Below the pieces are notes generated by a model. That model had not been told where the DNA came from. It did not search any database and was given only the letters and a program-made list of their open reading frames with translations. Position numbers and translations under genes: made by a program. A stretch of DNA of 64,000 nucleotides from Thermoanaerobaculia bacterium (lineage in GTDB: Bacteria > Acidobacteriota > Thermoanaerobaculia > Multivoradales > Multivoraceae): NCBI GenBank assembly GCA_963664405.1, contig OY761158.1, forward strand, positions 256,001 through 320,000, in the 5' to 3' direction. This document shows positions 20,181 to 49,814 of this stretch, one piece after another; the first letter of the stretch is position 1, and every line of letters starts with the position of its first letter.

Positions 20181-23003
20181 ATGCTCTTCTCTCACAATCG
20201 CAGAGTCACTGGTCTCGTCATTTTGGCGCTTGTGGCGGCAACGCCTATCTGCGCCCAAAACGTTGGAACGATACGCGGCACGGTCACCTCACCGGATGGC
20301 GAACCGCTTCCGGGAGTGCTGGTGCAGGTCACGGGAGACATCGTCCGTGGCGAGCGCACCTCGATCACCGGGGCCACTGGGGAGTACTTGGTCGCGGGGC
20401 TGCCGCCGGGGATGGTGGCGGTGACCGGGACACTCGAAGGGCTCGAGCCCAGCACGGTCGAAGGGGTCCGAGTCTCCATCTCCGGCGTCGCCACCGTCAA
20501 CCTCAGGATGCGTCCCGCGGACGTGGTCGAGGAGATCACGGTGACCTCGGAGGCAGCCCTCATCGATGTGACGAGCTCTTCCGTCAGCATGGACTTCCAG
20601 GCAGAGCTCATCGACGCTCTGCCGACGACGACGCGCAACTACCAGGAGTTCGCCCTGCTGGCCCCTGGCGTCAACTCGCAAGGTCGCGTCGGGGGCGTCG
20701 GAGAGTATCAGGGGTTCATCACGGCGTACGGTCGCGACTTCGGGTCGCACGGGTGGAACGTCGACGGACTCGCCGTCGCCATTCCAGATGACGGCGCTCC
20801 CTTTGGTGGGTCTATCGACCCCGACACCATCGCCGAGTATCAGGTGCTCGGCGCCGGCGCCCCGGCAGAGTACGGAAACATGACCGGAGTCGCCATCAAC
20901 GTTGTCACCAAGTCCGGGACTAACACCCACCATGGGCGTCTGGCCTCTAGTGGTGAGTGGGACGACACCACCGCCACCGGGCCCAAGGTCGCGGACGCGT
21001 TCGGGGTGGAGCGAGGCTTCGAGAGAGTCACCTACGAGAGTTACTCCCTGTGGTCGGGCGGGCCGATCAAGGAGGACAAGCTGTTCTATTTCCTCTCGAT
21101 CGGGTTGAGGGAGGAGCTCATGAACAATCCAGGCGCCACTCGTAGCATCACCATCCCCGTCGGTCAGGCAGACCACTACAACCTCAAGCTCGATTGGTCG
21201 ATGCACCCGTCGCATACGCTGACGGGCGGGTACCAGTGGGAAGACGTCAATAGACCGAGCTTCTCAACGACAGGGGGTCGCGTACTCGCCAACCCGAATT
21301 CCGTCGGCATCCAGCAGGCAAGCGGCCAGCCGTACACTCGGCTCGGCTACCAGGGGGTTCTGGGTTCCAACACCCTCGTCGAGGGCAACTGGTCGAACAT
21401 CTACACCTTGACCCATCATACCGCGGCGACCGGCAGTTTTGAGTCGCCATTCATCGACTTCAACACGTCTCCCGCCACCTCCCTGGGCGGATTGATTTAT
21501 CCTTATCTCTACCCCGTCTGGTAGTCTCGCGGCCACGCCAAGGTGACGCACTTCGCCGACGATCTCGCCGGCAGCCACGAGTTCAAGTTCGGTATCCAGT
21601 ACAACAACAGCAGTCAGCAGGCAGGGGCCGTCTTTCCCGGTTTCGGCGGCAAGTACTACTACAAGTTCGGGGCCACCTACTACGTCTACGCCCGCGCAGT
21701 TCACTACTACGGCGCCAAAGTAGAGGCTGTCGGGCTCTACGTCGACGACTCGTGGCGTATCACCGACAGGCTGACCCTGAACGTCGGAGTGCGCGCCGAC
21801 CAGGACGGGGCTGATCTGCCCCCCTTTCCGGTACTCGAGGAATACCTGTGTAACGACATCGGCTGCGGCGTTGTCGTTCCCGGAGAGTTCACGCCCAACT
21901 ACCCCGACGTCGTCGACTATGACAGCGTCGACCCGCGCATCGGAATCGCCTACCAGGTCGGTGAGGGACGCAGGCAAGGGGTCCTGCGGGCGTCCGCCGG
22001 CAGGTACCACGAGTTCAACATCACTTCCATGTGGCAACAACCGCACCCCGACCGGCCGCAGGCGCGCTTCGGCTACAGCCCCAACCGGTACGGCCCGTTT
22101 AGCTACTTCTTCGAGACCTCGGAGGACACCTTCGGGCTACCGCGCGAGGGCATGGAGCGACCCCAGACGGACCAGTTCGCCGTCGGCTACGACCAGCAGC
22201 TCGGGAACTACGTCGTCGGCCTTCAGCTCGTCAAACATGACACGACGGATATGATTGGCTGGTCGCTCGACGATGGCGGCGTCTACGAGGACTTTCCCTA
22301 CGTCAACCCCTTGACCGGCGAGACGATCATCCTCAAGAACATCATCGTGGAGGCCACCGCTCGAAAAGGCAACGCGCCCGGTGCGGACGCCAACGTCCCA
22401 CCAGGCTCGAAGTACGAGCAGGAGTACCAGGCCGTTTTCCTCACCTTCGCGAAGCGCCACACCGGCCGCTGGTCGCTGAGCTCGTCCCTCGCCTGGTCGG
22501 AGACGAAGGGATTCCAGGCTCAGTCAGCCAGCCAGAACCAGGGGGGCACTTTCTTCGTCGGTCTAAATGGCAGAGATCCGAACAACCATCTCTACAATGG
22601 AGGCCTCGGACAGTCCGACCGGCCGTGGGTGTTTCGGACCCAGGCACAGGTCGACCTGCCCTGGCAGCTCAAGGCGGTAGGCAGCTTCAACTATCAGGAC
22701 GGCAGACCGTACCGATTTCTGGCGCGCGTGACCGGAATGAACCAGGGGAATGTCACGATTCCACTCGAGCCGATGACCGGCGACCGCCGGTATCCAACCA
22801 ACACCAACCTCGACCTCGGTCTCTCGCGTCGCTTCCTCCTCGGCGATCGGCTCGGGTTGGCCGTCGACCTCCAGCTGTTGAACGTCTTCGACGACGACAC
22901 CTTCCATTACTGGGGTGGCTACGGCCTCTACCCCGCTCCGCTCACTCCCTCGCAGTACACCTTTCCGCGGCGGCTGGCGGTGCGGGTGGGTGTGGACTGG
23001 TAG
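20181..23003 (+). pseudogene. Oar-type TonB-dependent receptor copy 1, with in-frame TAG at 21522-21524
   Basis: Carboxypeptidase-regulatory-like N-domain, PAEYG and INVVTKSGTN plug motifs, C-terminal W; the two ORFs are in the same frame (PVW*SRGHAKVTH vs PVWFSRGH in copy 2). Confidence 0.85.
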
Positions 23004-23005
23004 AG

Positions 23006-23548
23006 ATGAGAGCGACACCCGAGGCACCACGCCTCGTCCGCGAGGCGCGACGTCTCGTCGATCGCCGTCGTCTGCTGGCATCGACGTCGTTGGGAGTCGT
23101 TGCGGCGGCCTTCGTCCCGCGGTCGGCGCGCGCCGCCCTGACGGCGCCGGAGCCGGGGGCCGCCTTGACGGCGGACGAGAAGGCGAATCGACAGACGACG
23201 CGCGACTTCATCAAGGCGCTCGAGACCATGGACTGGGATCGGTTCTCGAGCCTCCTCGCCGAGGATGCCCGGTTCTGGACTCATGCGGCGAGCGGGGAGT
23301 GGGCCCGCTCGGAGATGAAGGGCCGAGCGACGATCCTGGACGCGATGAAGAGGGTCATGCCTCCACTGAAGGATCCGAAGTTCACGATCACGCGTGAAGA
23401 AGCGCTGGGACACGTGGTCATTCACGTGCGTCGAGAGAACTTCACCACCACCGATGGCCCTCAAACGGTGACCAATACATGTATGTTCCTCGTCGACCAG
23501 GGCAAGGTACAGGTTTGGTTCGAGCAGGTCGGGCCGCTGCCCGCGTAG
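23006..23548 (+). CDS. Tat-exported NTF2-like (SnoaL / limonene epoxide hydrolase-like) protein, copy 1
   Basis: DRRRLL twin-arginine signal, ARA cleavage site; LLAEDARF..KGRATI and FLVDQGKVQVW pattern. Confidence 0.8.
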   Translation: MRATPEAPRLVREARRLVDRRRLLASTSLGVVAAAFVPRSARAALTAPEPGAALTADEKANRQTTRDFIKALETMDWDRFSSLLAEDARFWTHAASGEWARSEMKGRATILDAMKRVMPPLKDPKFTITREEALGHVVIHVRRENFTTTDGPQTVTNTCMFLVDQGKVQVWFEQVGPLPA

Positions 23549-23590
23549 CGAATCGACTGCGAATCGGCGCATCTCCAGAAGGAGGACGAC

Positions 23591-24148
23591 ATGGGTTTGA
23601 CACGAGATCTCGGCCGCGCATCGGTGGCAGCCACCCTCTTCTGTGCGTCGATCGCAACTGCACAATCTTCCGCGCTGGCGGACCCCGAATGCGCCGACGC
23701 GCACTTTCTGGTCGGGGAATGGGAGGTCAACCAAGGCGACGGCACGCTTCTTTCCGAAGTCCTCTGGGAGCTAGGTCCCGAGGGCTGTTACCTGGTGGAG
23801 ACGTGGAAGGGTATCGCCGAGGGCAATGTAGATGTCTTGGCCATCATGGCCTACCGCCGCGAACAAAAGGACTGGAGGTATTTCGCGGCGTCGACGAGGC
23901 CAGGCCCGGAGACTTGGTGGGCTGAGAATCCCCCGTGGCGGACACAGCGCGCGCTCTTCGACGACGGAAAGATGGTTGGCAACGAATTACGCTTCGTCAC
24001 CAAGGAGCCGCTAGCGAAGGGGACGACGGCCCGCTTCAGTTACTTCAACCTGCCCGACGGTCGGATCCGCGAGCTATCGCTGCTTTCGTCCGACGGGGGC
24101 AAGACCTGGGAGACCGAGTACGATCTGTTCTGGCAGCGAAAGAAGTGA
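23591..24148 (+). CDS. Secreted DUF1579-like protein, copy 1
   Basis: AAGGAGG RBS; signal peptide; FLVGEW, GCYLVETW and SSDGGKTW motifs. Confidence 0.7.
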   Translation: MGLTRDLGRASVAATLFCASIATAQSSALADPECADAHFLVGEWEVNQGDGTLLSEVLWELGPEGCYLVETWKGIAEGNVDVLAIMAYRREQKDWRYFAASTRPGPETWWAENPPWRTQRALFDDGKMVGNELRFVTKEPLAKGTTARFSYFNLPDGRIRELSLLSSDGGKTWETEYDLFWQRKK

Positions 24149-24187
24149 GTGCAGGCGTCAAGGATGTGAGTTCGGATAAATCTAGAC

Positions 24188-24760
24188 ATGAGGGAGACAC
24201 TGGACATGAGAGAGACACCCGAGGCACCACGCCTCGTCCGCGAGTCGCGACAACTCGTCGATCGCCGTCGTCTGCTGGCATCGACCTCCTTGGGAATCGC
24301 TGCGGCGGCTTTCCTGCCGCGGTCGGCGCGCGCCGCCCTGACGGCGCCGGAACCCGGCGCCACCTCGACGGCGGACGAGAAGGCGCATATACAGACCACG
24401 CGCGACTTCACCAAGGCGATGGAGGCGGGCGACTGGGATCGGGTCTCCAGCCTCCTCGCCGAGGACGCCCGATTCTGGACCCACGGGGACGCGGCCACCA
24501 GCGGGGAGTGGGCCCGAAAAGAGGTGAAGGGCCGGACGGCGATCATGGAGACGCTGGAGTCGTGCTGCTTTGACAACACGGATCAGAAGCTGATGATCAC
24601 GCGCGAAGAGGCGCTCGGACACGTGGTCATCCACCAGCGTCGAGATAACTGGACCAACGCCCAGGGCCCTCAGGTCGATGTGCCAAACACCAGTATGTTC
24701 CTCGTCCACCAGGGCAAGATCCAGGTTTGGTTCGAGCTTATCGGGGAGCTCCCCGCCTAG
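24188..24760 (+). CDS. Tat-exported NTF2-like protein, copy 2
   Basis: Paralog of 23006-23548; DRRRLL; ESCCFDN insert; start may be 24206. Confidence 0.8.
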   Translation: MRETLDMRETPEAPRLVRESRQLVDRRRLLASTSLGIAAAAFLPRSARAALTAPEPGATSTADEKAHIQTTRDFTKAMEAGDWDRVSSLLAEDARFWTHGDAATSGEWARKEVKGRTAIMETLESCCFDNTDQKLMITREEALGHVVIHQRRDNWTNAQGPQVDVPNTSMFLVHQGKIQVWFELIGELPA

Positions 24761-24777
24761 CGAATCGGCGAGCCGGA

Positions 24778-24817
24778 CTAGCCGAGGAAAATGATGAGTA
24801 TCATTTCCCTCTGCTAG
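24778..24817. repeat. 40-bp CTAG-bounded palindrome (IR-only mini element or terminator hairpin)
   Basis: CTAGCCGAGGAAAATGAT-gagt-ATCATTTCCCTCTGCTAG, between convergent genes. Confidence 0.55.
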
Positions 24818-24924
24818 TTATCCTTTGGCGCCGAGGACGGCGCACTTTGAGCTTGCTTCTTATACGCTTCGGACAGCGCCGTTTCGTTTTCTGCCGCGGC
24901 AGACTCCTGGATTATTCATGAAGC

Positions 24925-26217
24925 CTACTGCGGTGCCGCTGCCGACGGTGGAGTGGGGCGGCGGCAGAGGAAGGCCGACGTAGCTCCCAGCAGCGCTATG
25001 GCGACACATGCCCAGAACACGAGGACGTACGACCCGGTGGTATCTGCGACCTTGCCGGCGAGGCGCGGGGCCAGGTAGCCGAAGACTCCGGCGATCATGA
25101 TGCGTATCCCGCCGGTGAGAGCGAACGCCTTCATTCCGAAGAAGTCCCCGAACACGACGGGCAGGGAGATGTAGGCGGCGCCGAAGCCGAGGCCAAGGAG
25201 GACGACGCCGACGTAGAGCAGACCCTCTGAGTTGGCAAGCGCGAGACAGGCTACTCCGGCAGCTTCGACCACGTGGGCCAGCGCCAGTACCTTCGACGGC
25301 GCGAGGAAGTCTCCCGCGCTGGCGCTCAGCCGCCCGACGGCGCTGGCGCCGACGCGAAGTGTCCCGAGAATGAGCGCTGCGACGCCCACCGAGATCCCCA
25401 TCTCCTCGCGCACGTAGAGCCCACCGTGAGCGCTGACGATCCCCCACGGCACTCCAAGGGTGATGCTACAGATCGTGACAAGCACGAACTGCGGCGTCCG
25501 CAGCGCCTCCCGCGCGCTCCACGAGTAGCGAGCCTGGTCCTGCGCCACCGCGACCCGCGCGTCGATCGTCGCCGCAGCTCCGTCAGGCCGGAGACCCATC
25601 GACGCTGGCGTGTCACGAACGAAGATCAGAGCGAGGATCGCGACCCCGACCGAGACCCCGGCGATGATCACCCACGCGTCGCGCCAGCTGCCGCCCTCGA
25701 GGATCGCTGCGTTGAAGGGATTCACCGCCATACCCACCAGCGCTCCGCCGGTGAAGATGAAAGCCATCGCTCGGGCTCTGTACTTCTCGAACCAGAAGGT
25801 GGCCAAGGATTGATTCGGAAGGATGCAGGAGAAGCCGATTCCGATGCCGCCGATCAAGGCGTAGGCGACGTAGCAATCCGCGGCCGACTGGGCCTGGCTG
25901 AGGAGGTAGAACCCCAGTGCCGCCACCAGTGAGCCGGCCGTGATCATGGCCCGGATGCCGAAGCGGGCTATGCCCAGGCCAACCAGCGGCCCGACGGCGC
26001 CGAAGGTGAACACGAACACTCCGAAGATGCTCCCGGTCTGCTCGCGGGTGAGCCCGAGATCCTGGCGCAGCTCGGGACCGAAGAATCCCCAGCTGTAGTA
26101 GGCGGGCGAGATCCCGAAGCCGTAACAGAGAACGCCTATCCCGACCAGAATCCAGCCGTAGTAGATCCGCCGCCCACCGGGGCTAAACAAGGCCCGCCGA
26201 CGGCCTGGGGAACTCAC
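24925..26217 (-). CDS. MFS transporter (monocarboxylate/OFA-like)
   Basis: YYGWI start, G..IARFG.R motif A, WFEKYRARA, DFFG; ~12 hydrophobic segments; GTG overlaps the thioesterase stop. Confidence 0.85.
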   Translation of the reverse strand: MSSPGRRRALFSPGGRRIYYGWILVGIGVLCYGFGISPAYYSWGFFGPELRQDLGLTREQTGSIFGVFVFTFGAVGPLVGLGIARFGIRAMITAGSLVAALGFYLLSQAQSAADCYVAYALIGGIGIGFSCILPNQSLATFWFEKYRARAMAFIFTGGALVGMAVNPFNAAILEGGSWRDAWVIIAGVSVGVAILALIFVRDTPASMGLRPDGAAATIDARVAVAQDQARYSWSAREALRTPQFVLVTICSITLGVPWGIVSAHGGLYVREEMGISVGVAALILGTLRVGASAVGRLSASAGDFLAPSKVLALAHVVEAAGVACLALANSEGLLYVGVVLLGLGFGAAYISLPVVFGDFFGMKAFALTGGIRIMIAGVFGYLAPRLAGKVADTTGSYVLVFWACVAIALLGATSAFLCRRPTPPSAAAPQ

Positions 26218-26642
26218 CCGCGGGGCAGCGGACGGAGGGGGAAAAACTTCCCGGTGGTTCGCGCAATCAGCGTCTCGCCGTTGCACAGGCTCGCCTCCAC
26301 GACGAAATACTTTTCCCGCTCCTCCACGATCGAGGCCCTGGCCTCCACCGTGATCTCGAGCGGGCAGGGTCGTTCGAAGCGAATCGAAAGCTCCCCGGTC
26401 ATAACCTCCTGGTCGCGCAGGAAGTTCGGCGCGGCACAGCTGACCTCGTCCATGAGCGCGGCCACGATGCCCCCGTGGGCGGTTCCCGGCGGGCCCTGGA
26501 AGCGCGGGGGCACCGTGTACCGAGTGAACACCTCGTCGCCATCGCGGCCAAAGCGCAGCTGCAGCCCGCCCTCGAGGCTCCCGGAGCAACCGAAACAACC
26601 CATATCAGGGGTGGTGGCGAGATCGAGCTCTGGATCTGTCAC
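26214..26642 (-). CDS. PaaI family thioesterase (hotdog fold)
   Basis: CFGC and FQGPPGTAHGGIVAALMDE motifs. Confidence 0.88.
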   Translation of the reverse strand: MTDPELDLATTPDMGCFGCSGSLEGGLQLRFGRDGDEVFTRYTVPPRFQGPPGTAHGGIVAALMDEVSCAAPNFLRDQEVMTGELSIRFERPCPLEITVEARASIVEEREKYFVVEASLCNGETLIARTTGKFFPLRPLPRG

Positions 26643-26711
26643 AGCAGCAGGGTATCAGCCTGCAGGCACCCGGCGGCGATGCGTAGCGAATCGATCGACG
26701 AAGGCGGCATG

Positions 26712-28406
26712 TCAGTTCCGTCCCGGGGTGCCCCTCGGGATACCGGTACTGTCGAAGACGATATAGGTGACGCGCCACTCTTCGTCGCGCGGGTCGACGA
26801 GAAACTCGAGTTTGTAATTCATGCCCGGGCCGGCATTCCAGGCAACACCGGTGACGCTGGCGGTCGCGCCGTCCCACTCGATCTTCATCGCCTCGGTGTC
26901 GTAGCTGGTACCGGCGCCTGCAAAGAGGGTCTTTCTGAACATCTCCTTCGACCCACCGCTGGAGTTTGTGAAATCGTCGGCGAGGTAAGTGAGCATCCGA
27001 TCCACGTCCCCGGCCACCCACGCCTCCATCATTTGGCGGATCGTGGTCTCTACAGCCCCGGTATCTTGCGAGCCGCGCGCCCCTCCAAGCCGCTGCGCCT
27101 GAGCGGCGGTGCGCATAGCGGAGCTGCCCGTCGCTTTCGTGGTCCGCGTCGCGAGGTCGAAGCTCGCCAGGTGCTCCTCGTCCTTCACATATACCCGTGA
27201 TCCGGCGAGCGCCAGGTGCGACCAAGTCGGGGAAGTCGCCACTTCCCATGAGGCAAGCTCTCGGTAGGCGTCGGGGTCGGTGGCGATCACTTTGAGCTCG
27301 GCGCCATCGGTGAGTGCGAGCAGGCGATCCCCGACGACAATCACCGACGAGTAGGCCGCCCACCGCCCGGGGCTCTGCCAGACAAGTTTCCCGGTTGCGG
27401 CATCGAAACTGACGAAGGTGCCGGCCTTCTTGTTCGAGCGGAAATACAGGCGGTCGCCGACCCGCACCGGGGAGTCCATGTAGAGGTCCGCCTGGTTCGT
27501 CTTCCACACTTCGGTCACTTTCCAAGCTCCATCTCGTTGCGGTGGCTCGACCCTGAGCCCGGCGGTCCCCAACTGGTAGCCCGAGAGGATGAGCAGGTCC
27601 TTGTAGCGGACGGTGGTGACGGAATTCTGGTCGAAGGCGGTCTCGAACGCGGTCGACCACAAGAGCTCGCCGTCACTCGCTCGCACCCCGAAGAAGGCCT
27701 CATCGCCCAAGGTGACGATCTGGCGCACCCCTCCGATCGTGAACGCCATCGGCGAGGCGTAGGCGGGCGGTCCGTCTGCCCGCCAGACCTCTTTTCCGGT
27801 CGCCTTGTCGTAGGCAACCAGAGCTCCGTGGTCGTCCTCCTGCTCTAAGCCGGTGTTGCCGACGGGGACGATGATCAGATTTCCTTCGACCAGAGGCGAC
27901 GCCGCCGTTCCCCATATCGGGTACGGCGGGTCGTAGATGTCCTCGAAGCTCTTCTCCCACTGCACCGCGCCGGACTTGGCATCCAGTGCGAGGAGCCGCG
28001 ATCGGATGCCGAAGCTGTAGACCGAATCGCCATCGGCCAGCATCGTCGACTTGGGGCCCGGGCCATACTGGAGGGCCGCGGTCGCCGGCACGTACGGAAC
28101 CACGTACGCATGCCGCCACAGCTCCTTGCCGGTGGACGCCTCGAGCGCGAGCACGACTTCTTCCTCGCCCTGTCGCGCGAGGATGAAGACGCGGTCTCCA
28201 ACCACGATCGGAGAGGATTGCCCAACGCCAACGTGCACCTTCCACCGCCGCTCGAGAGCCGCGGGAAGCACCTCCGGCAACTCGCTTCCGGCAGCGACTC
28301 CGTTCCGTTCGGGGCCTCGCCACTGCGGCCAATCGGCTGCTTGTACAGAGAAGGCGAGACACAGCACTAGGAAGGGCGCCCACCTTCGAATCAGCCTACC
28401 GTTCAT
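26712..28406 (-). CDS. PQQ-type beta-propeller-NTF2 fusion, copy 2
   Basis: Collinear paralog of 4111-5871. Confidence 0.88.
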   Translation of the reverse strand: MNGRLIRRWAPFLVLCLAFSVQAADWPQWRGPERNGVAAGSELPEVLPAALERRWKVHVGVGQSSPIVVGDRVFILARQGEEEVVLALEASTGKELWRHAYVVPYVPATAALQYGPGPKSTMLADGDSVYSFGIRSRLLALDAKSGAVQWEKSFEDIYDPPYPIWGTAASPLVEGNLIIVPVGNTGLEQEDDHGALVAYDKATGKEVWRADGPPAYASPMAFTIGGVRQIVTLGDEAFFGVRASDGELLWSTAFETAFDQNSVTTVRYKDLLILSGYQLGTAGLRVEPPQRDGAWKVTEVWKTNQADLYMDSPVRVGDRLYFRSNKKAGTFVSFDAATGKLVWQSPGRWAAYSSVIVVGDRLLALTDGAELKVIATDPDAYRELASWEVATSPTWSHLALAGSRVYVKDEEHLASFDLATRTTKATGSSAMRTAAQAQRLGGARGSQDTGAVETTIRQMMEAWVAGDVDRMLTYLADDFTNSSGGSKEMFRKTLFAGAGTSYDTEAMKIEWDGATASVTGVAWNAGPGMNYKLEFLVDPRDEEWRVTYIVFDSTGIPRGTPGRN

Positions 28407-28431
28407 CTTCGCTTCCGATAGCTGTTCGATG

Positions 28432-41449: not shown

Positions 41450-41639
41450 ATCATCACGCCGGACTGGTGACTCGGTTGTAGAGGCCGGTGTTGAAATCCC
41501 TGATGAGATCGATTGCATCGTGTTGTGGCTCATCAAAGCGATCTCTCTCGGACATAGCGGTTCCCTCTACCCTGCAGGCTCGGCGTAGACGGCCGCGACC
41601 GAGTTCCGCGATGAGATGGGCGGGCGGGCTCCAGATTGC

Positions 41640-42413
41640 CTAGCCGAGCGGTCCTGCACTCAGCTCACCGCCGTCCAGAACGTAGGTGGTAGCGGTCGTG
41701 AACCTTCCTGCCTGAGTCGCCAGGGTCAACACCAGGGCCGCGATATCCTCCGGCTCCGCAATGCGGCCCATCGGGTTGATGGCGATGTTGTTTTTCTCCA
41801 CCCACTCGATCAGGCCCGCAGCCAGTTCAGTCCGGACCAGACCGGGAGCGATGGCAGCCGTGCGGATGCCGTCCTTCGCCCACTCCTTGCCGATCATCTG
41901 GCTGAAGTTGATCAACGCCGCCTTGGAGGGCGGGTAGATGCCCAGTCCTGGCGACGCCCGGACGCCCTCGTTCGACGCGATGTTGATGATCATGCCGCCG
42001 CCGCGCTCTTTCATCGTTGTCCGGCACAGCTGCGACAGTCGGATCGGTCCCCACACGTTGATGGCCATCACCCGCTGGAAGTCGTCCTCCTTCAGCTCGG
42101 CGATCGGGGTGCCGCCGCCGCCGGCGGCTGCGTTGTTGACCAGGATGTCAATGCCACCGAGCTCGGCGATCACCTGCTCGTAGAGGTCGTTGACGGCTTC
42201 GGTACTACCGACATCGGCCTGAATCGCTACTGCGCGGCGGCCAAGCTTGCGCAGCTCGCCACCGGTAGCCTCGAGTGCCTCGAGACCTCGAGCAGCGATC
42301 GCGACATCGGCTCCGTTCTCGGCAAACGCCAGGGCGATGGCACGACCGATGCCCTTGGAGCCACCGGTGACCAGCGCTACCTGGCCGTCCATGGAAAAAT
42401 CGACGATTGGCAT
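41640..42413 (-). CDS. Short-chain dehydrogenase/reductase
   Basis: TGGSKGIG, NNAA, YPPSK and DGG motifs; GGAGG RBS before ATG 42413. Confidence 0.9.
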   Translation of the reverse strand: MPIVDFSMDGQVALVTGGSKGIGRAIALAFAENGADVAIAARGLEALEATGGELRKLGRRAVAIQADVGSTEAVNDLYEQVIAELGGIDILVNNAAAGGGGTPIAELKEDDFQRVMAINVWGPIRLSQLCRTTMKERGGGMIINIASNEGVRASPGLGIYPPSKAALINFSQMIGKEWAKDGIRTAAIAPGLVRTELAAGLIEWVEKNNIAINPMGRIAEPEDIAALVLTLATQAGRFTTATTYVLDGGELSAGPLG

Positions 42414-42460
42414 GATGACCTCCGTTCCTGATTTGGTGGGTGGTTGAGCTGGGGCGACTG

Positions 42461-44170
42461 TCAGTTCGGGCCCGGGGTGCCCGCTTCGACCGGCTTGGCG
42501 TCGACGTACTCGAAGTAGGTCAGGCGCCACTCGCCGTCGCGCTCGTCGACCAGCAGGTCGAGTCCGAAATTCAGGGTGCCTCTGATCCATCGCACACCGG
42601 TGACGCTGGCGGTCGCACCCTGCCATTCGATCTTCATCGACTCGGTCTCGGCCGTGGTGCCGGCAGTGGGGCCGAGGTATTCGCGCCAGACCTCCCTCGA
42701 CGCGCCGGTGTCCGATCTGAAATCTTCGGCGACATAGGTCATCATGAGATCGAGATCCCCGGCCGTTATCGCCACCATCATCTGGCGGATCATGACAGCT
42801 ACCGCCTCGGTATCGTCCGAGCCGCGAGCCCTCCCCCCTCGCTGCGCCCCGTCGGCGGTGCGCGTGGCGGAGCTGTCGGTCGCTTTCGTGGACCGCACCG
42901 CGAGGTCGAAGCTTGCAAGATGCCCCTCGTCCTTCACGTATACCCGTGATCCGGAGAGTGCCACGTGGGCCCATGTGGCAGAGCTCGCCACCTCCCAAGA
43001 GGCCAGCTCCCGATAGCCCTCCGGGTCCGCCGCGATCACTTTGAGCTCGGCGGTGTCGGTCAGCGCGAGCAGGCGATCGCCGACGGCGATGACCGACGAG
43101 TACGCCGCCCACCGCCCCGGGCTCTGCCAGACAATCTTGCCGGTCATGGGATCGAGACAGACGAAGGTGCCGGCCCTCTTGTAGGAGCGGAAGTACAGAT
43201 AGTCGCCGACGCGCACCGGCGAATCCATGTAGAGCTCGACCTGCGTCGTCTTCCACACCTCGGTCACCTTCCAATCGCCGTCCCCTTTCGGGGGCTCGAC
43301 CTTGAGCGCCGCGGTCCCCCACTGGTAGCCCGAGAGGATGAACATGCCCTTGTAGAGGATGGTGGTGGGAGTGTTCTGGGAGAAGGCGGTTGCAATCTCC
43401 TTCGACCACAGCAGCTCACCGTCACTCGCCCGGACAGCGAAGAAGGCCACATTGCTCATCGTTACGATCTGGCGAACCCCTCCGTGAGTGAACGCCATCG
43501 GGGAGGCGTAAGCGGGCGGTCCGTCTGACCGCCAGACCTCCCTTCCGGTCGCCTTGTCGAAAGCAATCAGGGCTCCGTGATCGTCCTCATGCGCTGAGCC
43601 GGTGACGCCGACCGGGACGATGATCAGATTTCCCTCCACCAGAGGCGACGCCGCCGTTCCCCATATCGGGTAGGGCGGGTTGTAGACATCCTCGAAGGTC
43701 TTCTCCCAGCGCACCGCGCCGGACTTGGCATCCAAAGCCAGGAGGCGCTCGCGGATGCCGAAACTGTAAACCGAATCGCCTTCGGCCAGCATGGTCGACT
43801 TGGGGCCAGGGCCGTACTGGATGGCCGCGGTCGCCGGTACGTACGGAACCGTGTACGAATGCCGCCACAGCTCCTTGCCGGTGGACTTCGAAAGGGCGAG
43901 GACGACTTCTTCCTCACCCTGTCGCGCGTGGATGAAGACGCGGTCGCCGACGATGATCGGAGCGGACTGCCCAACGCCGACGTGCACCTTCCACAGACCG
44001 TGGAGGGCGGCGGGAAGCTCCGCCGGCAGCTCGCTTTCGGCAGCCACTCCGTCGCGCTGCGGCCCTCGCCACTGCGGCCAATCGGCTGCCCATGCAACCG
44101 GGCCCGAAGTGGTCAGGACGAGGGTCAGGAGCGTCAGCAGCAACACGAGGATCCATCGTCTGCCTTTCAC
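42461..44170 (-). CDS. PQQ-type beta-propeller-NTF2 fusion, copy 3
   Basis: Collinear paralog; GTG start overlaps the AraC stop. Confidence 0.88.
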   Translation of the reverse strand: MKGRRWILVLLLTLLTLVLTTSGPVAWAADWPQWRGPQRDGVAAESELPAELPAALHGLWKVHVGVGQSAPIIVGDRVFIHARQGEEEVVLALSKSTGKELWRHSYTVPYVPATAAIQYGPGPKSTMLAEGDSVYSFGIRERLLALDAKSGAVRWEKTFEDVYNPPYPIWGTAASPLVEGNLIIVPVGVTGSAHEDDHGALIAFDKATGREVWRSDGPPAYASPMAFTHGGVRQIVTMSNVAFFAVRASDGELLWSKEIATAFSQNTPTTILYKGMFILSGYQWGTAALKVEPPKGDGDWKVTEVWKTTQVELYMDSPVRVGDYLYFRSYKRAGTFVCLDPMTGKIVWQSPGRWAAYSSVIAVGDRLLALTDTAELKVIAADPEGYRELASWEVASSATWAHVALSGSRVYVKDEGHLASFDLAVRSTKATDSSATRTADGAQRGGRARGSDDTEAVAVMIRQMMVAITAGDLDLMMTYVAEDFRSDTGASREVWREYLGPTAGTTAETESMKIEWQGATASVTGVRWIRGTLNFGLDLLVDERDGEWRLTYFEYVDAKPVEAGTPGPN

Positions 44171-45249
44171 TGTCTAGCCTCCCTCGATTCTCGACCTGTT
44201 GAGGTCACGCTGTGCGCCGGAAACCACGTCACTTCGTTGCGAAACTTGCTCGGTGGCTGCCCGGTCCAACGCTTGAAGGCATGCCGGAAGTTGGCCGCGT
44301 CGCTGTAGCCTAGTCGTTCGGCGATCGCCTCTACGGTCAGCTCCGATTGCGACAAGTAGCGCAGGGCGAGATCCCGGCGTACCTCAGCCACGACCTCACG
44401 GTAGGACGTACCCGCCGCGGCGAGTCGCCGCCGCACCGAGCGTCGAGAAAGGTGGAGATGATGGGCGACGTCGCTCAGCGATGCGCTCGCATCGGCATGC
44501 TCGACGTAGCTTCGCACCCGAGCGATCGGATCGGATGAGGTACGAAGCTCTTCGATCGCCGCCGCACAGAGATCGAGGCAGTGGGAATGGGTGGCGGCGT
44601 CGCGCAGGGGCAGAGCCCTGTGAAAGAGGTCGGCGCTGACGAGCAACTGCGCAGTGCGACCCGAGGGGTCGAGGGCACGGATGAGGCCGGGCCTTTGCAA
44701 GCGTGAGGCCCTCTCCAGGCGTGAGGCTCTCTCGGAATCGCAATCGCGATCGAGGTCGCAACTCCGAGGGCTAGATCCGAGGAGATCGTGCAGGATGCGT
44801 GTCAGCTTCGCAAACTCCAGGGCGAGGAAGAAATCTCGATCGTCGGTGGCGAAGGCGAAGGTGTCCTCGAAAGAGACTGCCGTGCCCTGGCCGGTGGAGC
44901 GGAGGCGAATCGAGAACTTCAGGTTGAAGAGCGGCGCCAGGCTCCCGGCAAAGAGGTCGAGGGCGTCGCTAAGACGCTCGCAGGTGAGAAGCGCGTAGCC
45001 CGCCAGGCCGAACGAGGACAGGCGTAGCTGCGAGCCGGTGGTAACCGCCAGATCGTGTGCTGGAGCGATCTCGCTGGCAGCGCGCGCGATGGCGACCTGC
45101 TCGCGCATCGAGATCTTTCGATGTCGATCTCCCGGCTCGATCCCTCGCCCTCGCAGTAGACGCTCGACGACGGAGGAAGGCGCCCCTAGGCGCACCGCGG
45201 CCGCGGCGAGGATGCAAACCTCAGAGGTGGAGTAGACGGGCTCGTCCAT
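44167..45249 (-). CDS. AraC family regulator (OruR-like)
   Basis: FGLAGYALLT N-domain; C-terminal double HTH (IAERLGYSDAANFRHAFKRWTG); start moved to ATG 45249 because the upstream ORF part is MITE sequence. Confidence 0.85.
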   Translation of the reverse strand: MDEPVYSTSEVCILAAAAVRLGAPSSVVERLLRGRGIEPGDRHRKISMREQVAIARAASEIAPAHDLAVTTGSQLRLSSFGLAGYALLTCERLSDALDLFAGSLAPLFNLKFSIRLRSTGQGTAVSFEDTFAFATDDRDFFLALEFAKLTRILHDLLGSSPRSCDLDRDCDSERASRLERASRLQRPGLIRALDPSGRTAQLLVSADLFHRALPLRDAATHSHCLDLCAAAIEELRTSSDPIARVRSYVEHADASASLSDVAHHLHLSRRSVRRRLAAAGTSYREVVAEVRRDLALRYLSQSELTVEAIAERLGYSDAANFRHAFKRWTGQPPSKFRNEVTWFPAHSVTSTGRESREARQ

Positions 45250-45298
45250 GCTCGGCGGCAGCCAGGGCTCGTGGCGCGTGCCGCGGCCGGCAGTCACA

Positions 45299-45465
45299 CT
45301 AGTACATGCGGCCATAAGTACGGGTACGTTTCGAGGGACGATGCGCCTCGCCAGCAAGGCGCGTGACAGAGGCGTACCTGGCAGTACGCCGCAGGGAGCG
45401 CAACGCTGCTGGAGAGGATGCAGCGTCGCTCAAAACGTGTCCGTATTTGTGGCCGCGTGTACTAG
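45299..45465. mobile_element. CTAG-bounded MITE type C, copy 2
   Basis: Same length and termini as 8539-8705. Confidence 0.8.
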
Positions 45466-45558
45466 TCACCATGGACACACGAGTCGGCTCCCCACTTGCG
45501 AACACAGATGGCCGAGCGGATCCGGTCCCCGACGTCCGTTGGGGGACCGGCGGCACAG

Positions 45559-46077
45559 TCAGGCGGGCAGCTCCCCAACGAGCTCAAACCACACCTGGAC
45601 CTTGCCTTCGCTGACCAGGAACATCGCGCTGATGTTCCCTCCCGCAGGGCCTTGGGCGGTGGTGAAGGTCTCCTCACGATAGTGAAGGACCAAGTGGCCC
45701 AGCGCTTCTTCGCGCGTGATCTTGAATTCGGGATCTTTCAGGCCGGACATCACGTCCTTCATCCGGTCGACGATCGCCGCCCGGCCCTTTATCTCTGCCC
45801 GTGCCCAATCTCCGCTGGCAGAGTGGCTCATGAACCGGGCGTCCTCGGCGAGGAGGCTCGAGAAGCGATCCCAGTCACTGGCCTCCAGCGCCTTAGCGTA
45901 GTCGTGCGCGGTCTTGACATGCGCCTGCTCGTCGGCCGTTAATGCGGCGCCCGCCGAGCGCGGCAAGAAGGCCGCCGCAGCGAGTCCCATCGAGGTCGAT
46001 GCCAGTACAGTACGACGATCAACGCCGCGTCGCTTCTCGGGTATCGAAGTCATGCGCTTCCCTTTCTTCTCGGTCAT
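45559..46077 (-). CDS. Tat-exported NTF2-like protein, copy 4
   Basis: DRRTVL twin-arginine signal; paralog of copies 1-3. Confidence 0.8.
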   Translation of the reverse strand: MTEKKGKRMTSIPEKRRGVDRRTVLASTSMGLAAAAFLPRSAGAALTADEQAHVKTAHDYAKALEASDWDRFSSLLAEDARFMSHSASGDWARAEIKGRAAIVDRMKDVMSGLKDPEFKITREEALGHLVLHYREETFTTAQGPAGGNISAMFLVSEGKVQVWFELVGELPA

Positions 46078-46108: not shown

Positions 46109-48925
46109 CTAGAGCCCCAAACTCAATCGCAGCCCCATCCGCCGTGGCAGGTAGTACAAGGAGGGTACGGGCTCCCTGGGGTAGCGCCCATAGCTTGCGT
46201 TCGCGAAGTAGTAATACCCCTCCTCGTTCAGGAGGTTCATAACCTGCAGGTCGACACCGAACCTGACGCGATCGCCGAGCTGGAACTGCCGCGACAGACC
46301 GAGGTCGATGAAGGTCTTGGACGGCATGCGGCGGTCGCCGGTGAACGGCTCGAGGGGCACTACCGTTACGCCCTGGTTCAGGCGTACGCGCGCCATCTGC
46401 CGCCACGGGCGGCCGTCCTCATAGTTGACAACGCCGACCCCCTGGATCTTCCAGGGCAGGTCGACCAATCCCTGAGCCCGAAACACCCACGGCCGGTCGC
46501 CCTGTAGGAAACCTCCCTGGTAGAGATGATGATTCGGATCGCGGCCCTCTGAGCCGGTGTAGAAGGCCTGGCCCTGGTTCTGGTTGAGCGGACGTTGGCT
46601 GACTCCCTTCGCCTCCGACCAGCCCAGCGACGCGTTGAGTGACCAGCGGCCGGTGTGGCGCTTGTTGAAGGTGAGAAAAACGCCCTTGTAGTCCTGCTCG
46701 AACTTCGCTAATGGAACGTTGGGGTCTGCGCTAGGGTCGTTGGCCTTGCGCAGGATGGGCTGGTCGATGATGTTCCTGAGCGTGATCGTCTCGCCCGTCA
46801 AGGGGTTGAGGTAAGGAACGTCCTCGAAGACGCCGCCGCCCTGTAGCTGCCAGCCGATGAGGTCGGTCGTTTCGGTGATGACGACCTGAGCGCCGACGGT
46901 GTAGTTCCCCAGCTGCTGCTCGTAGCCGACGGCGAACTCGTCGGTCTGCGGCCGCTCCATGCCCTCGACCGGTAGAGCGAAGTCCTCGTTGCCGACCGTG
47001 CGGAAGTAGGTGAAGGGGCCGTAGCGGTTGGGGCTGTAGCCGAAGTACGCAGACGGCCGGGTGGGGGCCGGCTGGTTCCACATCGAAACGACGTTCATCT
47101 CGTGGTATCGGCCGAGGGACGCCCGCAGCACGCCTTGCCGGCGGCCCTCGCCGACCTGGTATGCGATGCCGATACGCGGATCGACGCTGTCATAGTCGAT
47201 GACGTCGGGGACGCCGTCGCTGAACTCGCCGGTGGTCACGCCGCAGTTGAGCTGATCACAGAGGTAGGACTCGAGGATCGGTTGGGGGGGAAGCTCGCCC
47301 ACGTCGTTGTCGGCTCGCACGCCGATATTCAGCGTCAGCCTGTCGGTTATACGCCACGAATCGTCGACGTAGAGCCCGATAGCCTCTGAGTCGCCGCCGT
47401 AGTAGTGCGCGGCGCGGGAGTAGATGTAGTAGTTGGCTCCGAACTTGTAGTAGTACTTGCCGGTGAAACCGGGATAGACCGCTCCGGCCTGCTCGCCGGT
47501 CTTGCTGTACTGCACACCGAACTTGAACTCGTGGCTGCCGGCGAGGTCGTCGGCGAAGTGGGTCACCTTGGCGTGGCCGCGATTCCACCACACGGGGTAG
47601 AGGTAGGGATAGGTGGGGCCGCCGCTATGAGTCGGAATAGGCGTGTTGTAGTTGATGAGGGGCGGCTCCAAGCTGCCGGTCGCCGAGACGTTGCGGTCCT
47701 CGTTCTTAGTGTCGGAGTAGTAGGCCTCGATGATGGTGTTGGCGCCAAGCACCGACTGGTAGCCGAGACGCCAGTAGGGGACCTCCTCGTACTCGCGGCT
47801 GTAAGCACCCGGGTTGGTCTTGAAGGTTCCAGAGCCGCCGCTGGCGATCTCCAGGTCCTCGTGACGGCCGTGAGCCGTCAGCGTATTCGACGGATTGATC
47901 GACCAGTCGAGCTTGAGGCTGTAGTGCTGGGCTTCGTCGTTGCGGACGAATTCCGCGATCTCTCCCGGCTCGATCAGCAGGTCTTCCTTTTGCGTGAGCG
48001 AGGCGAAGAAGAACAGCTTGTCCTTCTGCAAAGGACCGCCCGCCCACAGGCTGTAGTTCTCGAAGGTGTCTCTCTGGAAGCCCTGCAGGTTTCCCCGGGC
48101 GTCCTCGACTGCGGTCCCCGTGGCGGTGGTGTCGTCGAACTCGCCGCTGTAGGAAAAGCGGCCGTGGAAGATGTTGGTTCCGGACTTGGTGACGACGTTG
48201 ACCGCGGCGCCGGTCATGTTGCCGTACTCCGCCGGGGCGCCGACGCCGAGCACCTGGACTTCGGCGATGGTGTCGGGGTCGGTCCAGCCACCGAAGATGT
48301 TGCCGTTGTCCGGGAAGCTGCCGTCGAGTCCATCGACGTTCCAGGCCACCGAGGCTTGATCACGACCGTAGGCCGAGGGGTGCCCCGCATAGGCTCCGAC
48401 ATTGCCGAGGCGACCGGTCATGTTCATGCCGGGCGCCATCAGGGCGAGCTCCTGGAAGTTCCCCGTGGTCGACGGCTTCGCATCGAGCAGCTCTTCTGCG
48501 AAGCTGACGCTGGCCGAAGAGCTAGTCACATCGAGGATCGCTGCCTCCGAGGTCACCGTGATCGCCTCTTCGACGGCTTCGGGACGCATCGTCAGGTTCA
48601 CGCTGGCCACACCGGAGATGGAGACGCGGACCCCTTCGACGGTCTCGGTCTCCAGCCCTTGGAGACTCGCGGTCACAGTCACCCGTCCCGGAGGGAGGCT
48701 GGGGATCAACCACTCGCCGGTGGCTCCGGTCGTCGAGATACGCTCACCGCGTACGACGTCGCCCGTTACCTGGACCCGCACGCCGGGGAGCGGCTCCCCA
48801 TCTGCCGAAGTGACGGTTCCACGCACAGTGCCGACGTTTTGGGCGTAGACGGCCGCAGCAGGTACCAGCGCAACTGCGAGAAGAACGAGAGGTACTGCCG
48901 GCGAGACAAAGGAACGTAGCCGCAT
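46109..48925 (-). CDS. Oar-type TonB-dependent receptor copy 3 (intact)
   Basis: GGAGG RBS, 938-aa uninterrupted frame, same motifs as copies 1 and 2. Confidence 0.9.
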   Translation of the reverse strand: MRLRSFVSPAVPLVLLAVALVPAAAVYAQNVGTVRGTVTSADGEPLPGVRVQVTGDVVRGERISTTGATGEWLIPSLPPGRVTVTASLQGLETETVEGVRVSISGVASVNLTMRPEAVEEAITVTSEAAILDVTSSSASVSFAEELLDAKPSTTGNFQELALMAPGMNMTGRLGNVGAYAGHPSAYGRDQASVAWNVDGLDGSFPDNGNIFGGWTDPDTIAEVQVLGVGAPAEYGNMTGAAVNVVTKSGTNIFHGRFSYSGEFDDTTATGTAVEDARGNLQGFQRDTFENYSLWAGGPLQKDKLFFFASLTQKEDLLIEPGEIAEFVRNDEAQHYSLKLDWSINPSNTLTAHGRHEDLEIASGGSGTFKTNPGAYSREYEEVPYWRLGYQSVLGANTIIEAYYSDTKNEDRNVSATGSLEPPLINYNTPIPTHSGGPTYPYLYPVWWNRGHAKVTHFADDLAGSHEFKFGVQYSKTGEQAGAVYPGFTGKYYYKFGANYYIYSRAAHYYGGDSEAIGLYVDDSWRITDRLTLNIGVRADNDVGELPPQPILESYLCDQLNCGVTTGEFSDGVPDVIDYDSVDPRIGIAYQVGEGRRQGVLRASLGRYHEMNVVSMWNQPAPTRPSAYFGYSPNRYGPFTYFRTVGNEDFALPVEGMERPQTDEFAVGYEQQLGNYTVGAQVVITETTDLIGWQLQGGGVFEDVPYLNPLTGETITLRNIIDQPILRKANDPSADPNVPLAKFEQDYKGVFLTFNKRHTGRWSLNASLGWSEAKGVSQRPLNQNQGQAFYTGSEGRDPNHHLYQGGFLQGDRPWVFRAQGLVDLPWKIQGVGVVNYEDGRPWRQMARVRLNQGVTVVPLEPFTGDRRMPSKTFIDLGLSRQFQLGDRVRFGVDLQVMNLLNEEGYYYFANASYGRYPREPVPSLYYLPRRMGLRLSLGL

Positions 48926-48963
48926 CAGCCAATCCTCCGGGAAAGCCCGCCATGTCATTTTTA

Positions 48964-49003
48964 GGTCGACGACCCATTGTTGCATAGTCGAGGACCATGT
49001 CAA
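48964..49003 (-). promoter_or_regulatory. Receptor promoter with putative TetR operator, copy 2
   Basis: TTGACA (49003-48998), AACAAT, then palindrome GGTCG-T-CGACC (48964-48974). Confidence 0.55.
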
Positions 49004-49130
49004 GCCCCAGAAATGCGACTTTGCTCCGCGACGCCACGAAGTGGCGCCATGAAGTGGGTCTACGTTGCCGAGCAGAGCATCGCAGTCTCTCTGTCGAGAC
49101 GCGACAGGCGTCACGCCGGATGCAACAGAC

Positions 49131-49814
49131 TCAGCGCTCTGCGATCCACAAGACGGAGGCTACGACTTCGTCCTCATAGGACGGGTGTCTCAGCCCGCGT
49201 ATGCTCTCGAGAGTCTCGGCTGGCATCATCGAAGTACCGTCGATCATCGCCGTGACGAGGACGGCCTTGAGCCGCAGTTGGCTCGCGGTCGCTCCCGGCT
49301 CGAGCTCTCTCAGAATCGGAGTCAACAGCTCGTAGTTGCGCTCCCAGAGCTCGTGCCGGAGAGCCCGGAACCGTGGACTCTGCTGCGCAGAGTCGGCGAG
49401 AGCCCTCCAGATTGGGACGTGGGTCGTCCCAGCGGGGCCATCCTCCCACCGTGCGATGAAGGCGCGGGTGATGGCAGCCAACCGGTCCCTGGGCTTCTCT
49501 TCGCGCGCGCAGAGCAAATCGATCAGCTCGCAGTCGGAATCGGACTCGGCACGAAACAGCGCCGCGAGCAGATCTTCTCGGGTCGGGAAGTAGTATTGGA
49601 GGTTCCCTAACGAGATCTCGAGGTCTTTGGCCACACTGCGCAAGAGACCGGAGCCGTTTTCGGAGTCGCCCAGTTGAGCGCGGGCCGCGTCGAGGATCTC
49701 CTCACGTCGACGAAGGCCCTTCGCCCCGTGGCGATTCCGTCCCTTCTGAGCTCCTGGACTCTGCTCTCCAGATCTCTTCTCGTCGACCTGTGAGCCTTCG
49801 TCAGAAGTTGGCAT
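49131..49814 (-). CDS. TetR/AcrR family regulator, copy 2
   Basis: 227 aa, nearly identical to 28892-29575, in inverted orientation. Confidence 0.9.
   Translation of the reverse strand: MPTSDEGSQVDEKRSGEQSPGAQKGRNRHGAKGLRRREEILDAARAQLGDSENGSGLLRSVAKDLEISLGNLQYYFPTREDLLAALFRAESDSDCELIDLLCAREEKPRDRLAAITRAFIARWEDGPAGTTHVPIWRALADSAQQSPRFRALRHELWERNYELLTPILRELEPGATASQLRLKAVLVTAMIDGTSMMPAETLESIRGLRHPSYEDEVVASVLWIAER

Follow-up and report, generated by a model that had tools for sequence, protein, structure and literature searches.

What is the function of a group of envelope genes that occurs several times over in one region of the genome of a Thermoanaerobaculia bacterium? The region analysed here, which we call the window, spans 64,000 nucleotides (positions 256,001 to 320,000 of contig OY761158.1, the single 6.78 Mb contig of the genome). 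It encodes three Oar-type TonB-dependent receptors, four NTF2-fold proteins with a twin-arginine signal, three barrel proteins, four BamB-like propellers, and two TetR regulators. The same totals had been given in the original prediction, and they were reproduced by Pfam, the analysis of repeats, and translations. On the sequence evidence, we lean towards the view that the set encodes envelope uptake and carrier functions for a hydrophobic primary amine and feeds amine-converting enzymes. Its predicted conserved core is an Oar-type receptor, an NTF2 protein exported by the twin-arginine translocation (Tat) pathway and encoded directly behind it, a ten-stranded barrel, and a BamB-like propeller of the periplasm that ends in an NTF2-like tail. 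In the source genome this set has been duplicated, has gained a TetR gene upstream of the receptor, and is partly decaying.

We selected open reading frames (ORFs) of the window with a filter on GC content at the third codon position, which gave 66 ORFs over all strands and frames for a Pfam scan, 21 of which were also scanned with NCBIfam. Within each family of the window the members are true paralogues: the two TetR genes share 96% of 762 nucleotides (93% at the protein level), as had been expected of two near-identical genes, and a repeat search gave 74–92% DNA identity in the other families, far beyond chance. Three of the NTF2 genes lie 2–32 nt behind a receptor, so that the proposed succession of the two genes held for every receptor; the remaining one, NTF2b, is instead behind a barrel gene.

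Is this arrangement more than a local accident? A profile search of the phylum with the four NTF2 paralogues matched 12 of the 401 sampled genomes, and strong matches were found only in the source genome and in five of nine genomes of one sister genus. In all five, the 20-kb locus around the match has the same organisation: a barrel gene is followed on its strand by the heavy chain of a tryptophan tryptophylquinone (TTQ) amine dehydrogenase, MauE, MauD, and the light chain, and this operon is divergent from a receptor gene followed by an NTF2 gene. In one genome (G445), the light chain is followed by cytochrome c, and the genes beyond encode a tetratricopeptide repeat (TPR) protein, a Sel1-membrane protein, and two propeller-NTF2 proteins; on the other side, a sulfatase-TPR gene lies next to the NTF2 gene. 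The window holds the same flanking genes (sulfatase-TPR at 1173-3596, Sel1-membrane at 50885-52534, TPR at 54267-54968) and thus corresponds to this locus by synteny, in an expanded and rearranged form. A contig scan for related loci had found nothing when a single NTF2 protein was the query; the family alignment then found 27 loci.

We extended the search to 57 genomes of the family, of which 42 belong to the sister genus and 14 to other genera. The TTQ light chain was found in 27 of the 42 and in none of the 14, and the NTF2 protein in 25 and none. The barrel was matched at E values around 1e-85 in 25 sister-genus genomes, with weaker matches (1e-14 to 1e-33) in 9 of the 14 others. The propeller tail was found at E≤1e-28 in 26 sister-genus genomes and in none of the other genera at that threshold. 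The carriers of NTF2, of the strong barrel match, and of the propeller tail are all subsets of the 27 dehydrogenase carriers. Dehydrogenase, NTF2, and barrel occur together in 24 of the 42 genomes and all three are missing from 15; these counts are descriptive and not a test, since the genomes are close kin, whose co-occurrence overstates independence, and profiles A3 and A4 probably include sister-genus sequences. In 25 of the 27 carriers, the dehydrogenase operon opens with the barrel gene. Among the 27 NTF2 genes (25 genomes), 26 lie at most about 213 nt downstream of a receptor match on the same strand, an adjacency that we read by eye from the match coordinates. The proteins of the two genera are only 50–67% identical.

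Receptor, NTF2, barrel, and propeller-NTF2 genes thus co-occur in another genus, as the original prediction had anticipated, and the set is not just a local duplication. The hypothesis that there is no functional unit, and that genes merely hitch-hike on recent segmental duplication and recombination in a plastic island rich in insertion sequences (IS) and toxin-antitoxin modules, has in its favour the 96–97% identity of two window blocks to a locus 2.3 Mb off, catabolic proteins 99.7–100% identical between the two loci, two dead receptors, and the IS, integrase, and six toxin-antitoxin-type modules of the window, yet it is largely refuted and very improbable because the neighbourhood is conserved in another genus, where receptor-NTF2 adjacency (26 of 27) and the association with dehydrogenase, barrel, and propeller persist at 50–67% protein identity and D-R-R plus some 45 other NTF2 columns are invariant.

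In the window, the dehydrogenase is encoded on the minus strand at 58183-62394, a stretch outside the part of the window (20181-49814) covered by the original prediction and which proved to hold the organising partner of the set. The operon was delimited with Pfam, NCBIfam, and alignment to structure chains, and runs in the order barrel D_c (61876-62394, with a Sec signal), heavy chain (60675-61856; PF06433, 112 bits), MauE (64 bits), MauD-like redoxin, light chain (58955-59629; PF02975, 138 bits), and cytochrome c. The stop codon of D_c is 19 nt ahead of the heavy-chain ATG. Light chain, heavy-chain propeller, MauE, and MauD together identify a TTQ amine dehydrogenase. Compared with solved structures, the light chain scores 137 bits against methylamine dehydrogenase and 134 bits against aromatic amine dehydrogenase (PDB 3c75 and 2agl). 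The alignment to these two structures shows that both TTQ tryptophans (the W of AWTG and the W of SWC) and the cysteine framework are kept, and the dehydrogenase therefore looks functional. The scores are below the NCBIfam equivalog cut-offs (138 versus 197 bits for the light chain, 115 versus 454 for the heavy chain), so we assigned no substrate to the light chain. Among the window ORFs, the Pfam scan, which was not aimed at amicyanin, showed no family of the amicyanin type. Propeller 4 starts at 62661 on the plus strand, divergent from the operon, and runs past the end of the window (64000); its NTF2-like tail lies at genome positions 320068-320406.

Other genes point to amines as well. A copper amine oxidase (6220-8187, plus strand; 596 bits with the NCBIfam primary-amine oxidase model) is divergent from propeller 1 (4111-5871, minus strand). 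The array further includes a class-III aminotransferase, an AraC-family regulator (44167-45357, minus strand) whose best NCBIfam match is QhpR, the regulator of quinohemoprotein amine dehydrogenase (129.8 bits against a 250-bit cut-off), and TetR regulators with a BetI-type C-terminal domain. In the sister genus, one genome (G437) has a second cassette in which receptor, NTF2, and barrel genes are followed by a copper amine oxidase, the latter in two frames. The guess that the molecules concerned bear amines has thus gained independent support from the sister-genus dehydrogenase, from the copper amine oxidases of G437 and of the window, from the aminotransferase, and from the two kinds of regulators. 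The literature accessible to our search, seen in part, held no description of an association of receptor, NTF2, barrel, and propeller genes with amine enzymes.

The proteins of the core were characterised one family at a time. The receptors have the CarboxypepD_reg, plug, and OMP_b-brl_4/TonB_dep_Rec_b-barrel domains of Oar-like TonB-dependent receptors, although across broken frames in copies 1 and 2. Receptor 3 scores 56.8 bits with PF13620, 90.4 with PF25183, 36.3 with PF00593, and 21.9 with Plug (cut-off 23.9). A possible PqqU-like receptor for the import of pyrroloquinoline quinone (PQQ) was discarded: its NCBIfam score of 16 bits is meaningless against a cut-off of 1200.

The NTF2 family is narrow, with 28 clusters each at least 48% identical to the query. 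The three window copies that were scanned are above the cut-offs of SnoaL_2 (32.4–34.5 bits, cut-off 27) and of limonene-1,2-epoxide hydrolase (LEH; 27.2–36.3 bits, cut-off 24). In 18 of 18 aligned members the N terminus has an invariant D-R-R followed by LLA(S/A)xSLG...AAA and then by ARA or a cysteine, and about 45 other columns are also invariant. Eleven of the 18 have the cysteine, which lies in a lipobox-like AAAC sequence ahead of an Ala/Glu-rich linker, and the other 7, including all four window copies, have an AxA-type site. We infer that the proteins are exported by the Tat pathway, as soluble proteins in the source genome and, in the sister genus, as lipoprotein-like forms that have a flexible linker. 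The AlphaFold2 (AF2) model, of moderate confidence (pLDDT 65.8), matches LEH, ketosteroid isomerase (KSI), and SnoaL (Foldseek matches 5aif, 2bng, and 6uae), and sequence matches to solved structures are all weak (E≥0.0076). The invariant polar residues are D79, R81, H85, E123, and H128; the catalytic residues of LEH are an Asp-Arg-Asp triad with Tyr/Asn.

The close family of the barrel is rare (12 clusters), and its profile recovers 4,117 proteins at E≤1e-3 among 1.84 billion representatives. These genes had been described as DUF1579-like. This is tenable at the level of superfamily and fold: none of the three window barrels matches Pfam DUF1579 (PF07617) even at E≤10, and PF07617 is matched by 4 of the 18 relatives scanned from the profile search, 2 of them above the cut-off, which indicates kinship at the superfamily level only. 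The model (pLDDT 85.9) consists of an N-terminal helix and a ten-stranded barrel and matches the spirocyclases OssO and OlmO, the anti-sigma factor RsfG, nitrobindin/THAP4, Rv2717c, and fatty-acid-binding proteins (Foldseek TM 0.53–0.79 to 7sfn, 7sfp, 3wjf, 3ia8, and 2fr2). The fold is shared with the haem barrels of nitrobindin/THAP4, and the 13 aligned members have no invariant histidine. C66 is the sole invariant cysteine of the alignment, which has no invariant His/Met/Cys set of metal or haem ligands. Both the NTF2 and the barrel folds typically hold hydrophobic ligands.

The four propellers have a signal peptide, match the BamB-like PQQ_2 repeat with 106–135 bits, and are far from the models of PQQ-dependent dehydrogenases (70 versus 480 bits for TIGR03075, 55 versus 650 for TIGR04528). 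The proposed fusion of propeller and NTF2 domains stands for the propeller part, and its NTF2 part is moderately supported: the tail of one copy, propeller 2, matches DUF4440 with E 5e-4 (residues 455-522), and the alignment of the tails with the N-terminal helices of the NTF2 family has an hhalign probability of 75%. Co-folding receptor residues 118-938 (A5) with NTF2 residues 45-172 (A4) gave a score of 0.00 against a mark of 0.32, which counts neither way.

How much of the array is intact? The first cassette, on the plus strand, is made of receptor copy 1 (20181-23003; CarboxypepD_reg, Plug, and OMP_b-brl_4 over two ORFs in one frame), NTF2a (23006-23548, SnoaL/LEH-like by paralogue alignment, its ATG 2 nt past the receptor stop), barrel D_a (23591-24148, with a Sec signal, from alignment and translation), and NTF2b (24188-24760; LEH 33.9 bits, SnoaL_2 33.5 bits, and alignment), both NTF2 proteins having the twin-arginine signal. 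On the minus strand follow a major facilitator superfamily (MFS) transporter of the L-lactate/monocarboxylate type with a hotdog thioesterase (24925-26642; Pfam and NCBIfam) and propeller 2 (26712-28406; PQQ_2, 110 bits), which has a signal peptide and the NTF2-like tail. The second cassette, back on the plus strand, starts with TetR1 (28892-29575) and includes receptor copy 2 (29747-32612; Pfam domains over broken frames, with a change of frame in tblastn), NTF2c (32615-33121, twin-arginine signal, by Pfam and alignment), an IS with a DUF6788 gene and a UPF0236-family transposase (33140-35005, by Pfam), barrel D_b (35055-35534, by alignment, with an AGGAGG and an ATG start), and a run of catabolic genes identified with Pfam and NCBIfam (35565-41449): the class-III aminotransferase, an MFS transporter, E1 alpha, E1 beta, and an AcoC-like E2 with lipoyl, E3-binding, and alpha-beta-hydrolase domains. 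D_b has no signal peptide and is probably cytoplasmic. The minus strand then carries a short-chain dehydrogenase (SDR) at 41640-42416, recognised from its translation pattern only (TGGSKGIG...YPPSK) and downstream of propeller 3 (42461-44170; PQQ_2, 106.6 bits, NTF2-like tail by alignment), as well as the QhpR-like gene, NTF2d (45559-46077, twin-arginine signal; Pfam, alignments, and the AF2 model with its LEH/KSI fold matches), receptor copy 3 (46109-48925, in an ORF that extends to 49114; 938 aa from the Met preceding the signal peptide), and TetR2 (49131-49814; Pfam and repeat search). A plus-strand ORF at 41616-42431 is spurious, the real gene being the SDR on the other strand.

Among the three receptors of the window, the reading frame is intact in receptor 3 only. 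Receptor 1 has an in-frame TAG at 21522-21524 where the 96%-identical copy at 2.62 Mb has TGG. Receptor 2 changes frame between 31708 and 31752 in tblastn, because of a 22-nt tandem duplication (around 31706-31749) that is missing from copies 1 and 3 in the alignment. Receptors 1 and 2 are thus pseudogenes. In contigs of three public DNA runs from two studies, which cover the region, neither a difference at 21523 nor an indel at 31706-31749 is listed. The lesions are thereby neither contradicted nor independently confirmed, as a variant that goes unlisted may still exist and the source sample may be among these runs. The junction of NTF2c and D_b is split by the 1.87-kb IS, which is flanked by a 12-nt direct repeat and recurs elsewhere in the genome, twice in full (97% and 96%) and several times as a fragment. 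A barrel gene after two of the receptors had been proposed, and one is present after copies 1 and 2, although the IS cuts D_b off from NTF2c. The array is therefore one in turnover, by nonsense mutation, frameshift, and IS insertion. In two public runs of different studies (X1 and X3), contigs join window position 33143 to 23568 with 15 other letters between, linking the end of NTF2c with the start region of D_a. Either the population contains an NTF2-barrel junction without the IS, or the contigs were joined via paralogous sequence. Contigs of a metatranscriptome (X12) touch 11 of 30 bins, too few for a claim on expression.

The sister-genus genomes decay in the same manner. The receptor of the dehydrogenase locus has an in-frame TAG in one of them (G437:C1:1500187-1502958) and was lost from the locus in another (L032 of G436, 7450-8791), and second cassettes are down to NTF2 and barrel fragments in two more (G349:C3:1477862-1478185 and G444:C1:2122708-2122914).

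Searches of the source genome with tblastn and blastn revealed a contiguous 14.5-kb unit 2.3 Mb from the window, at 2,613,877-2,628,450. It is made of TetR, an intact receptor (951 aa), NTF2, barrel, NTF2, barrel, the class-III aminotransferase, MFS, E1 alpha, E1 beta, and the lipoyl/alpha-beta-hydrolase E2, and ends with convergent SDR and propeller genes. Window positions 20248-24777 are 96.2% identical to a part of this unit and positions 35008-44090 are 97.3% identical to the remainder, the catabolic proteins being 99.7–100% identical between the copies. The two window blocks are parted by 10.2 kb (24778-35007), missing from the second locus, that hold the MFS transporter, the thioesterase, propeller 2, TetR1, the frameshifted receptor 2, NTF2c, and the IS. 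A good part of the amplification is thus a very recent segmental duplicate. The second locus has itself decayed, with a split MFS gene, propeller fragments, and a fragment of a copper amine oxidase; the pairing of propeller and oxidase is kept there in the form of fragments. The idea that the paralogues diversify specificity is weakened by the loss of two window receptors out of three and by the recent origin of much of the amplification, a duplicate at 96–97% identity.

The TetR genes are a lineage-specific addition. They score 35 bits with TetR_C_6 (cut-off 27; 35.4 for TetR1, which forms an inverted repeat with TetR2) and 17.7 with TetR_N, under its 24-bit cut-off. They are not BetI equivalogs, given a score of 42 bits against a cut-off of 201. 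TetR had been counted as a member of the set, which does not hold: it was found in none of the 42 sister-genus genomes, and the other genera have three distant matches at 27–33% identity. The spacer of about 190 nt between TetR and receptor is 88% conserved in all three copies (29560-29860 and 48840-49150 in the window; 15480-15790 of L029) and contains TTGACA, a 12-nt motif once or twice, and AGGAGG ahead of the receptor ATG. The spacer is a candidate for a promoter/operator region; alignments of three upstream and three TetR-receptor intergenic regions defined no operator. We infer that this regulator controls the cassette copy to which it is attached.

How might these proteins work together? 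The outer-membrane receptor would bring in a hydrophobic primary amine, the NTF2 and barrel proteins would hold the amine, or its aldehyde product, in the periplasm, and the amine would be handed to the periplasmic TTQ dehydrogenase or to a copper amine oxidase. In the source genome it may also go through the MFS transporter to the cytoplasmic aminotransferase and the cleavage complex resembling acetoin dehydrogenase, with the signal-less barrel as a cytoplasmic carrier.

Several observations weigh against this model. With only one live receptor out of three, much of the window array may be non-functional. The NTF2 and barrel proteins could be enzymes rather than carriers, since LEH, SnoaL, and OlmO are catalytic. 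There is no mauG in the locus, and the two only CCP_MauG matches of the genome lie at 1.97 and 6.59 Mb. The kinship of the sister-genus genomes, mentioned above, belongs here too. So do some of these genomes taken individually: in G436, the sole exception to the adjacency, NTF2 and barrel genes lie beside the dehydrogenase and the receptor is missing between them, G431 has the dehydrogenase alone, and G418 has no strong barrel match. A fourth genome, G414, is a partial case, with a fragmented assembly and no NTF2 gene. Finally, the closest orthologues of receptor 3 (78–81% identity, in seven sister-genus genomes) are at another locus, and in the one such locus scanned (L034, G236:C1:2466000-2485999, at 9011-13183) the gene behind the receptor is of the beta-lactamase family and not NTF2. 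This points to reuse of the receptor clade together with different periplasmic partners.

A bolder form of the amine-uptake reading can also be proposed, which we regard as tentative and rather doubtful. The locus would be the first TonB-dependent uptake route reserved for lipophilic amines, with the Tat-exported NTF2 (lipo)protein as a SusD-like partner on the periplasmic side and with barrels that ferry the amine to the oxidases or to the inner membrane and, for the signal-less copy, within the cytoplasm. In the source genome, a sphingoid base or another long-chain amino alcohol would be a candidate for this amine. In such a route the aminotransferase would produce an alpha-hydroxyketone, which the acetoin-dehydrogenase-like complex, with thiamine pyrophosphate (TPP) and lipoyl cofactors, would cleave.

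It is unlikely that the set serves instead the supply and maturation of cofactors or metals, the receptor importing copper, a quinone, or another cofactor and the NTF2, barrel, and propeller proteins acting as chaperones or electron-transfer accessories. Such a role would fit its ties to two enzymes with protein-derived quinones, the TTQ dehydrogenase and the copper amine oxidase, and the position of the barrel gene, first in the operon of 25 of the 27 dehydrogenase carriers. Relatives with the nitrobindin fold bind haem, the propellers are of the PQQ_2 repeat type, and with the MauG gene missing from the locus other helpers are conceivable. However, the receptor-NTF2-barrel cassette heads, under TetR, an operon with a pyridoxal-phosphate-dependent aminotransferase, MFS, and TPP/lipoyl genes, which resembles substrate catabolism, and there is no regulator of the Fur, extracytoplasmic-function sigma, or anti-sigma type nearby. 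The barrel alignment lacks an invariant set of His/Met/Cys ligands, the propellers reach 70 of the 480 bits expected of true PQQ dehydrogenases, and one barrel copy has no signal.

A role in defence or detoxification seems to us equally improbable. Its target would be a toxic lipophilic amine, or the reactive aldehyde from amine oxidation, which the set would detect and clear, with TetR as the xenobiotic sensor and the NTF2 and barrel proteins as sponges or as enzymes of the hydrolase, isomerase, or cyclase type. TetR regulators commonly govern responses to xenobiotics, the structural matches of NTF2 are enzymes (LEH, SnoaL, and KSI), the best ones of the barrel are the spirocyclases OssO and OlmO, the window has a small multidrug resistance (SMR) efflux gene and several MFS genes, and the cassette turns over rapidly by birth and death. 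Yet a TonB-dependent receptor is an importer, the aminotransferase and the E1/E2 enzymes convert the carbon skeleton in a way typical of assimilation, and the sister genus keeps the set with TetR in 0 of 42 genomes.

The surroundings of the array have some features of their own. Toxin-antitoxin-type modules crowd the window, with HicAB, MazF-like, HEPN/MNT, RHH+MazF, VapBC, and HigBA (13384-13967, 19347-19721, 49915-50828, 52824-54098, and 56057-56668), next to an rve integrase (10193-11617), which fits a plastic island surrounding the cassettes. Two paralogues with the pyridoxamine-phosphate-oxidase (PNPOx-like) fold, 84% identical in DNA, lie on either side of HigBA (55407-55841 and 56665-57186). 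A 172-nt direct repeat, 91% identical (8537-8708 and 45297-45468), occurs downstream of the copper amine oxidase and again over the 5′ end of the QhpR-like gene and the sequence ahead of it; tblastn found no second copy of this AraC gene. A gene for a secreted protein of 371 aa (unk371; 17999-19114, minus strand), without Pfam or NCBIfam match, seemed co-localised in related loci and was dropped as a member of a very large family of paralogues, for which tblastn gave 57 high-scoring segment pairs in the source genome. In a different family of the phylum, three genomes have arrays of such genes next to distant NTF2-like ones (L026, 8709-13297; L028, 10328-15191), and the atlas neighbours of the protein are all Acidobacteriota clusters.

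Amine dehydrogenases and oxidases are usually assumed to be fed with substrate by diffusion through porins. If amine uptake is indeed the function of the set, some bacteria actively scavenge scarce or greasy amines with a TonB receptor and dedicated periplasmic carriers. It would also provide the first functional context for Oar-type receptors, exported NTF2 proteins, barrels of the DUF1579 superfamily, and BamB-like propellers, four envelope families with poor annotation and wide occurrence in Acidobacteriota. Binding assays would be straightforward, given the small size and solubility of the NTF2 and barrel proteins, and the locus is a clear natural example of the birth-and-death evolution of an uptake cassette.

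How does the locus compare with known systems? The polysaccharide utilisation loci (PULs) of Bacteroidota, with their SusC/SusD pairs, and the receptor-centred loci of Proteobacteria are the classical TonB-dependent loci for substrate utilisation. Like them, the window combines a receptor, accessory proteins of the envelope, a transporter of the inner membrane, catabolic enzymes, and a local regulator, and has amplified paralogous cassettes. It differs from SusC/SusD PULs in its Oar-type receptor, which carries CarboxypepD_reg at its N terminus, comes near the cut-off of no NCBIfam receptor model, and has a Tat-exported NTF2 protein as its partner; no SusD-like or SusC-type family was found in the 66 ORFs scanned with Pfam and the 21 scanned with NCBIfam. 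The likeness to PULs that had been proposed is plausible, and in the absence of a SusD-like partner it is an analogy only; unlike in glycan PULs, the enzymes linked to the receptor act on amines. The dehydrogenase operon has heavy chain, MauE, MauD-like redoxin, and light chain in the order of the mau and aau clusters of Paracoccus and Alcaligenes, whereas it opens with a nitrobindin-like barrel, ends with a cytochrome c, lacks mauG, and is divergently paired with a TonB receptor-NTF2 operon. The barrel has the N-terminal helix and ten strands of DUF1579, nitrobindin/THAP4, and OlmO/OssO proteins, with no invariant histidine for haem among its aligned members. The NTF2 proteins pass the SnoaL_2 and LEH cut-offs, as befits relatives of LEH, SnoaL, and KSI, and differ from these enzymes in carrying a twin-arginine signal and in being typically encoded behind a TonB receptor. 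We rate the locus as a putative variant of the TonB-dependent utilisation loci, one with an NTF2 partner and amine enzymes.

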